Part shown: positions 17,804 through 18,944 of the stretch, one piece after another
How positions within the stretch are numbered: the stretch's first letter is position 1
How the letters are laid out: each line of letters begins with the position of its first letter
DNA from: Escherichia phage RCIP0319
Sequence record: PV464738.1
Strand: one strand, 5' to 3'
DNA length: 64,000 nt
Program-made: the position numbers and the translations under genes
The notes under the pieces: generated by a model
Told to the model about the DNA's origin: nothing
The model's input: the letters and a program-made list of their open reading frames with translations, nothing else
The model's database searches: none

Positions 17804-18838
17804 ATGCAAAAGTTTGACACAAACCTGTTGCAAAACCTTAAGTGGATGCAGAACAACGCGCCAAACATCACATCTTTGGTTCAGAAGAAGAGTGACTGGT
17901 ATGAGCGATATCAAGATCAGTTTTGGATTGACTGGTACAAGAACATATTCAACATTGATACTTGTGATGCAATGGGCATCTATATTTGGTGTGACATCCT
18001 ATGCATACCAAGGGATTTTGTTGACTTAAGCAACTATGAGCACAACTGGGCGTTTGGACCCACACGCGACAACTTCGAAGGGCCGGACAATATCGGCGGC
18101 AACTTCTTTGGTGCTGGCGGAAAGGTTGTGAAAAACATCGAAGAAGCCCGAATACTTCTGAAGCTTCGTTATCTGACGCTTACAAGTGATGGCCGCATAG
18201 AAAGCATCAACCGTATGCTTAAGTGGATTTTCAACCGTGGAGAAGATTGGGATTACTCTTCATCGCGCTACGCATATGTGGCAGATAATACTCAAGGCGC
18301 GGTGTCTTCTTCTGAAGCAACAGACGGCTCATTCCTTCTGTACGACTGGCAGGGGTCAACTGAGATTCAGCACGATTATAAACAAGTTCTTTTGAGCCAC
18401 GGCAACAACGCAGGACTTACCATAAGTGGGGTGGCAGGGACCGTTTCGCGAATGGCACACCCAGACTGGTATTCATGGGGTAATGGTTCCGGCGCTGGTA
18501 TTGTCGGCGGCGATACACGACAATATGGCGGCCCTGACTATTACGGCCAACTGTGCGGTGACTACCCAGGAGAGGCCATAGAGAATTTCGCCAACGCAGT
18601 ACGGGTCATCAAGACCGCTTCCAGCGGCGAGCCTGTGTATTCTTTGGCCAATAATCCAAGCGCCCAATCTATTGCACTTCCTTCTCAGGCTGGTGTCAAC
18701 GTTTGCTATAGCTTCTACATAAAAGTGCTTTCTGAAAACGTGGCTTCTGTTTCCGTAACAGAGAACAGTGATGCATCGAGTAATGGAAAACTTTTCGACC
18801 CAGTGACTGGGCAGTTCTGGTGTCAACGTTTGCTATAG
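17804..18838 (+). CDS. baseplate/tail fiber protein, N-terminal fragment truncated by frameshift
   Basis: RBS GAGGA; ORF ends WCQRLL* six codons into the second copy of a 127-bp tandem duplication; removing one copy fuses it in frame with the 18852 ORF. Confidence 0.5.
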   Translation: MQKFDTNLLQNLKWMQNNAPNITSLVQKKSDWYERYQDQFWIDWYKNIFNIDTCDAMGIYIWCDILCIPRDFVDLSNYEHNWAFGPTRDNFEGPDNIGGNFFGAGGKVVKNIEEARILLKLRYLTLTSDGRIESINRMLKWIFNRGEDWDYSSSRYAYVADNTQGAVSSSEATDGSFLLYDWQGSTEIQHDYKQVLLSHGNNAGLTISGVAGTVSRMAHPDWYSWGNGSGAGIVGGDTRQYGGPDYYGQLCGDYPGEAIENFANAVRVIKTASSGEPVYSLANNPSAQSIALPSQAGVNVCYSFYIKVLSENVASVSVTENSDASSNGKLFDPVTGQFWCQRLL

Positions 18839-18944
18839 CTTCTACATAAAAGTGCTTTCTGAAAACGTGGCTTCTGTTTCCGTAACAGAGAACAGTGATG
18901 CATCGAGTAATGGAAAACTTTTCGACCCAGTGACTGGGCAGTTC
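18691..18944. repeat. perfect tandem duplication, 2 x 127 bp
   Basis: 18691-18817 is identical to 18818-18944; 127 is not a multiple of 3. Confidence 0.9.

Follow-up and report, generated by a model that had tools for sequence, protein, structure and literature searches.

Among the closest described counterparts of the locus analyzed here is the baseplate of the Pbunavirus E217, whose "nut" consists of six triplexes, each containing two copies of gp44 and one copy of gp45 (PMC10329688). A loop of E217 gp45 (residues 76-123) anchors the fiber encoded by the next gene (PMC10329688). Within the genus Wifcevirus, the BASEL study describes two fibers, i.e. a conserved fiber with an HxH tip and a variable T-shaped fiber encoded elsewhere in the genome (PMC11990801).

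A second body of work that bears on this locus concerns the assembly of phage genomes. The largest SPAdes k-mer is 127, and this is also the length of the contig-end overlap found in circular or terminally redundant phage contigs (PMC5923482, PMC7372960, PMC8104045). For example, 127 bp were removed from the sequence of phage U136B ahead of re-opening the genome (PMC8104045). The Phage Annotation Guide cautions that a contig can be longer than 100% of the genome, and advises a check for duplicated regions (PMC8785237). The rotation of a record to the gene for the terminase large subunit (terL) is performed by Pharokka with the option --dnaapler (PMC13338908).

The DNA analyzed here is a stretch of 64,000 nucleotides (hereafter the window) that belongs to a coliphage of the genus Wifcevirus (Lindbergviridae), with ~98% identity to phage vB_EcoM_WFH over its first 25 kb. 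Searches of complete Escherichia coli genomes return no match to the window, and a prophage origin is rejected on this basis. No tRNAs and no Rfam families were found in the window. The window starts at an arbitrary point within a gene, and its final segment (62210-64000) aligns to positions 66268-68059 of phage kaset, i.e. up to the final base of that record, with both sequences sharing the ending ...GCAAACTATAAT. Position 1 of the kaset record is the terL ATG (CDS 1). Because the window likewise ends on the base before the terL start, as in the re-oriented kaset record, it was rotated after assembly, and it represents the last 64 kb (3' end) of a record that had been re-oriented to terL. The features of the locus, and those of the wider window that bear on it, are listed in Table 1.

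Table 1. Coordinates of the duplicated segment, the surrounding genes, and the landmarks of record orientation in the window.
Feature	Coordinates	Strand	Description
Baseplate_J-like wedge subunit, upstream gene	16526..17797	+	Pfam PF04865; phrog_6 "baseplate wedge subunit"
ORF1	17804..18838	+	344 aa: 338 native N-terminal residues, then WCQRLL out of frame, ending at TAG
Copy 1 of the 127-bp unit	18691..18817	+	Native sequence of the predicted baseplate gene; starts at base 3 of codon 296 and runs through codon 338
Copy 2 of the 127-bp unit	18818..18944	+	Redundant; identical to copy 1; absent in 28 related records
ORF2	18852..20669	+	Mechanical ORF with GTG start; 605 aa, corresponding to native residues 308-912
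Conserved tail fiber with HxH-motif tip, downstream gene	20680..22464	+	phrog_5717 and other tail-fiber PHROGs; BASEL description (PMC11990801)
Equivalent of the WFH direct terminal repeat	55211..58527	+	Present once, i.e. collapsed
Window end	63940..64000	+	Last bases before the ATG of the terminase large subunit

The two copies of the 127-bp unit are identical at 127 of 127 bases and directly abut one another, which bears out the perfect tandem duplication reported in the initial annotation. TRF recovers one array (18690-18944) with a period of 127, 2.0 copies, 100% matches, 0 indels, and a score of 510. The identity extends by one base to the left (C at 18690, 18817, and 18944) and by none to the right. 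The earlier statement that the junctions lack microhomology was thus nearly right, as it holds for the right side and misses a single base pair on the left; a homology of 1 bp is expected by chance in 25% of cases. The junction between the copies (18817/18818) reads CTGGGCAGTTC followed by TGGTGTCAACGTT, with CTGGGCAGTTCTGGTGTCAACGTT as the 24-mer that spans it, and the flanking junctions are CAGGCTGGTGTC and GCAGTTCAATCTTG. Neither the junction 24-mer nor a 34-mer has a match in viral, one-genome-per-species, or JGI metagenome contigs. The 127-bp repeat is the only perfect tandem duplication with a period of 30-400 in the window and, by a wide margin, its longest repeat; it cannot have arisen by chance. 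The interval 18650-18980 spans 331 bp with two copies and 204 bp with one.

The duplication splits one long coding sequence into two ORFs. ORF1 stops after WCQRLL within copy 2 and ORF2 starts inside the same copy, as the initial annotation had described. Its estimate of a fused protein of ~910 aa also proves accurate, since the deletion of one copy yields an ORF of 2,739 nt and 912 aa without an internal stop (the gene spans 2,866 nt with both copies). This repaired ORF is collinear with CDS0032 of phage kaset, to which it aligns without gaps and from which it differs by 16 nt and 6 aa.

The signals for translation initiation fall on ORF1 and not on ORF2. A Shine-Dalgarno sequence (GAGGAA, ~-6 kcal/mol) precedes both the ATG of ORF1 and the downstream fiber gene. 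By comparison, no Shine-Dalgarno pairing is detectable at the GTG of ORF2 (0 kcal/mol vs. -6 for the neighboring genes), and the first in-frame ATG of this ORF lies 173 codons downstream of the GTG. ORF2 is not an independent gene. In an exact look-up among 15 billion proteins, ORF1, ORF2, the repaired 912-aa protein, and the proteins of both neighboring genes are all absent, so this isolate has no second representative in that set.

The duplicated segment is present as a single copy in 28 of 28 Wifcevirus records of the phage collection, where the gene spans 2,739 nt (2,738 in WFC), and the difference in span between these relatives and the window amounts to exactly one 127-bp copy. Copy 1 shows no differences from the single copy of WFH and EC150, and one difference from that of kaset. 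Nine orthologues (~90-99% nucleotide identity) all have 912 codons and align without gaps.

Beyond the genus, the family is small (2 clusters in one search and 3 representatives in another). An exhaustive HMMER search with ORF2 against 1.84 billion representatives recovers only three proteins, one of which (P0003) is a near-identical fragment of 337 aa. The other two, P0002 and P0004 (~1,085 aa each), both start with DUF2612 and carry the region homologous to ORF2 internally within one chain; P0002, which is 39% identical from end to end, comes from a contig of 72.5 kb on which the synteny is the same. The distant homologues (33-39% identity) are thus single proteins, and the homologues of ORF2 sit inside proteins of 912-1,088 aa. 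On this evidence, the single-polypeptide architecture is conserved well past the genus. The initial annotation had raised the case of related phages that naturally encode two separate genes at this position; the gene is split at this site in 0 of 28 relatives and in 0 of 2 distant homologues.

Two of the Wifcevirus records carry split CDS annotations at this locus. In SP13 (OP352608.1, 2001-4739), an intact ORF of 912 codons is mis-annotated as two CDSs. In vB_EcoM_WFC (NC_048195.1, 2001-4738), the gene lacks 2 nt near nt 260, has 1 extra nt near nt 476, and is annotated as three CDSs; these indels close to the 5' end reflect either errors of sequencing or a genuine defect. A naturally bipartite gene, as the CDSs of these two phages might suggest, was rejected, because the gene is intact in SP13 and the WFC indels are unrelated to the duplication.

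The gene is annotated as "hypothetical protein" in kaset (CDS0032), WFH (gp047), EC150, ECO71P1, FEC19, Bas99, and vB_Eco4M-7n. Its product carries Pfam PF11041, DUF2612, at residues 10-146 (57.3 bits vs. a gathering cutoff of 23.5), a family called Phage_Wedge1 in newer Pfam. Residues 4-186 match Pa193 gp46 (PDB 9B45, E = 9.6e-42) and E217 gp45 (8ENV, E = 3.5e-41), and residues 509-572 give a second, weak and collinear match to the C-terminus of E217 gp45. The only other family matches are phrog_4797 (unknown function) and phrog_587 (structural). The order of genes is also that of E217, i.e. Baseplate_J-like, gp45-like, and tail fiber (PMC10329688), and the upstream gene has the same synteny in kaset, WFH, and L012. 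Because of the DUF2612 domain, the homology to E217 gp45 and Pa193 gp46, and the shared gene order, we identify the product on sequence grounds as a putative baseplate triplex/wedge subunit of the E217 gp45 type, and the Wifcevirus "hypothetical protein" can now be named accordingly. From its Baseplate_J domain and its synteny, and following the E217 structure (PMC10329688), we infer that the upstream gene encodes the equivalent of the triplex partner gp44. In position, the downstream fiber corresponds to the fiber that the E217 triplex subunit anchors.

The likeness to the Pbunavirus proteins is strongest in the N-terminal ~185 residues, which are clearly homologous to E217 gp45 (8ENV, 8EON) and Pa193 gp46 (9B45). 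In contrast to these proteins of ~500 aa, the Wifcevirus protein has 912 aa, with residues ~187-508 too diverged from E217 gp45 to be aligned and with ~340 additional C-terminal residues that are almost without homologues. The predicted structure of a full-length orthologue is unusable (mean pLDDT 33). The C-terminal region (residues ~573-912 of the repaired gene, window ~19647-20666) is a near-orphan that carries no Pfam domain and has 3 hits among 1.84 billion representatives, yet it is strongly conserved in the genus (dN/dS about 0.06).

The initial annotation had called the gene a baseplate/tail-fiber gene and a host-range determinant. The first half of this label agrees with the homology to E217 gp45, and the rest does not, as the product is neither a fiber nor variable. 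Compared with six relatives (~90-97% nucleotide identity over the gene), dN/dS is 0.03-0.07, and the values are alike in the N-terminal part, the duplicated segment, and the 574 residues past the break. Strong purifying selection acts on the entire protein, which is therefore not a variable host-range module. An identity as tail fiber or host-range determinant was rejected in view of the fixed length, these low ratios, and the lack of any match to a fiber family, and the gene is neither of the two Wifcevirus fibers described by BASEL (PMC11990801).

Variation between the window and kaset is concentrated elsewhere. The most variable part is window ~47000-62200, which holds early small genes, and most of the T-shaped fiber region (window ~60.2-62.2 kb, kaset 64273-66645) cannot be aligned. 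The latter fits the BASEL account, in which that fiber, and not the disrupted gene, bears the variable receptor-binding domains (PMC11990801).

Given these observations, we consider it very probable that the 127-bp duplication is an artifact of assembly and curation, and not a feature of the phage. Among the three options left by the initial annotation—i.e. a natural duplication, an artifact, or a deliberate or phase-variable disruption—this one is strongly favored and the other two are disfavored. A Wifcevirus genome with its terminal repeat collapsed would have been assembled with SPAdes, or with a wrapper based on it, at a maximum k of 127. The resulting "circular" contig would have had identical first and last 127 bases, and it would then have been rotated to the terminase large subunit, with Pharokka --dnaapler or by hand, with the overlap left untrimmed. 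The original contig ends, which we infer to have been joined at 18817/18818, would abut head-to-tail within the gene for the baseplate triplex subunit, so that 127 bp appear twice in perfect tandem, the reading frame shifts by +1 (127 mod 3 = 1), and the gene looks like two ORFs. Both the use of SPAdes and the omission of the trimming step are read back from the sequence in this scheme, which predicts a single copy and an unbroken 912-aa gene in the real phage.

Several features of the record favor this explanation. The length of the repeat is exactly that of the SPAdes k-mer and the copies are 100% identical; a match to k = 127 could be coincidental, at odds of about one in several hundred. 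Rotation of the record, as seen from its terL end, is the operation by which an end overlap, if left untrimmed, becomes a tandem repeat inside the sequence. The segment is single in all 28 relatives, the distant homologues are single proteins, and no other perfect tandem duplication of comparable period exists in the window, all of which point the same way, as does the expectation that a propagated phage should not retain a frameshift in a structural gene under constraint. The repeat thus resembles a SPAdes k = 127 overlap in its exact length, its identical copies, its arbitrary position relative to genes, and the collapsed terminal repeat of the record that contains it. It differs from published overlaps of this kind, where the copies lie at the contig ends and are trimmed, in that the copies here are adjacent and internal, a difference that follows from the rotation to terL without trimming.

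The collapse of the terminal repeat is visible by comparison with WFH, where positions 1-3701 equal 67583-71283 (a direct terminal repeat of 3,701 bp) and both ends map to the same segment of the window (Table 1). The deposited sequence omits the true terminal redundancy. The presence of this 3.7-kb repeat only once, as happens in short-read "circular" assemblies, therefore indicates a circularized assembly of the short-read type and adds to the case for an artifact. The 127-bp repeat itself was also considered as a remnant of terminal redundancy, and this was rejected because the equivalent of the WFH terminal repeat lies at 55.2-58.5 kb, i.e. 36 kb away.

The best surviving alternative is a genuine and recent tandem duplication, arisen by slippage or by illegitimate recombination with a 1-bp junction, that is present in most of the sequenced stock and truncates the protein past residue 338. 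The sequence as given does contain the repeat, the single base of junction homology suits illegitimate recombination, and the perfect identity of the copies suits a very recent event. A relative also offers a precedent, as kaset (PV245935.1, 33137-33240) has its own perfect, head-to-tail 52-bp duplication at the CDS0041/CDS0042 boundary, which is lacking in the window (~27689-27749) and may be genuine. Unlike the 127-bp repeat, those 52 bp match no usual assembler k and lie outside a constrained structural gene. The 338 N-terminal residues left by the frameshift still contain the DUF2612 core, along with the segment that aligns to the fiber-attachment loop of E217 gp45, so a partly functional fragment is conceivable.

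Against a genuine event stand the exact SPAdes length, the absence of the duplication from every relative (0 of 28), and the strong purifying selection over the full length of a gene whose nine orthologues all encode 912 aa. The frameshifted copy, if real, would yield a truncated core baseplate subunit with little or no C-terminal product, and such a frameshift should be lethal or strongly counter-selected. Fixation of the lesion in a propagated phage stock is unlikely because the product is a predicted core baseplate subunit, dN/dS is low on both sides of the break, and ORF2 is without a ribosome-binding site. Moreover, recombination between direct repeats of 127 bp would readily restore the single copy, and the duplicated form should therefore not predominate in a stock that had been plaque-purified. 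Overall, we regard a genuine duplication as improbable. We also find it very improbable that the duplication is real in a viable stock whose triplex subunit is cut after the DUF2612 core, with recombination acting as a stochastic on/off switch of the baseplate. If the duplication were true, the ~570-residue C-terminal region conserved across the genus would either be dispensable or be provided in trans through weak reinitiation.

A deliberate or synthetic change, either an engineered disruption or a duplication introduced into the file after assembly (contig merging, manual editing, or a planted feature), would account for the perfect copies, the lack of a scar, and a lesion that is unique among relatives. 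The source record also has no match in the public collections searched, which accords with such a change. Engineered knock-outs are usually deletions, stop codons, or cassettes, and a scarless duplication of 127 bp is atypical of them. No vector or marker sequence is present, and the value of 127 is predicted by the SPAdes explanation only and not by editing, which makes deliberate change highly improbable. A functional arrangement—i.e. two subunits that are naturally separate, programmed recoding, or a switch akin to phase variation that is reversed through expansion and contraction of the repeat—is barely credible. In its favor, homologous recombination could in principle remove a copy and restore the gene, and the 13 nt between the ORF1 stop and the ORF2 GTG make weak termination-reinitiation possible. 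Against it, the site lacks any simple-sequence or slippery tract, ORF2 is not preceded by a Shine-Dalgarno sequence, the arrangement is kept neither in the relatives (0 of 28) nor in the distant homologues, and the break falls at no recognizable domain boundary, with beta-strands predicted at low confidence (pLDDT 33) across residues 299-339 and regions homologous to gp45 on both sides.

If the duplication is an artifact of untrimmed overlap, the record is 127 bp too long and shows a conserved core baseplate gene as two false ORFs. The 127-bp duplication would then have no biological importance, and what matters is data quality, as an error of this kind would mislead annotation, pangenome and host-range analyses, and the "genome integrity" screens used for phage therapy. 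As a rule, where a phage or plasmid record begins at a conventional gene, any perfect tandem duplication whose unit is 55, 77, 99, or 127 bp long is best presumed to be an untrimmed assembler overlap until reads indicate otherwise.

Other repeats in the window are shorter. Inside the equivalent of the terminal repeat, a 36-nt inverted repeat (57127-57162 and 57681-57716, 89% complementary) flanks 518 nt, and the alignment between the window and kaset also breaks at this inverted repeat (57127-57716). Five sites carry 2-3 tandem copies of a 9-bp unit, TACGGATGA (opposite strand: ATCCGTATC), where 0 are expected by chance. The sites (1112-1140, 1235-1261, 1317-1334, and 55134-55162; also 1064-1088 and 55319-55343) include a perfect 29-bp repeat pair whose members lie 54 kb apart. 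The unit may be a regulatory or packaging-related motif, and its copy at 55.14 kb lies ~50-70 bp upstream of the position that corresponds to the left end of WFH, i.e. the start of its terminal repeat (window 55211).
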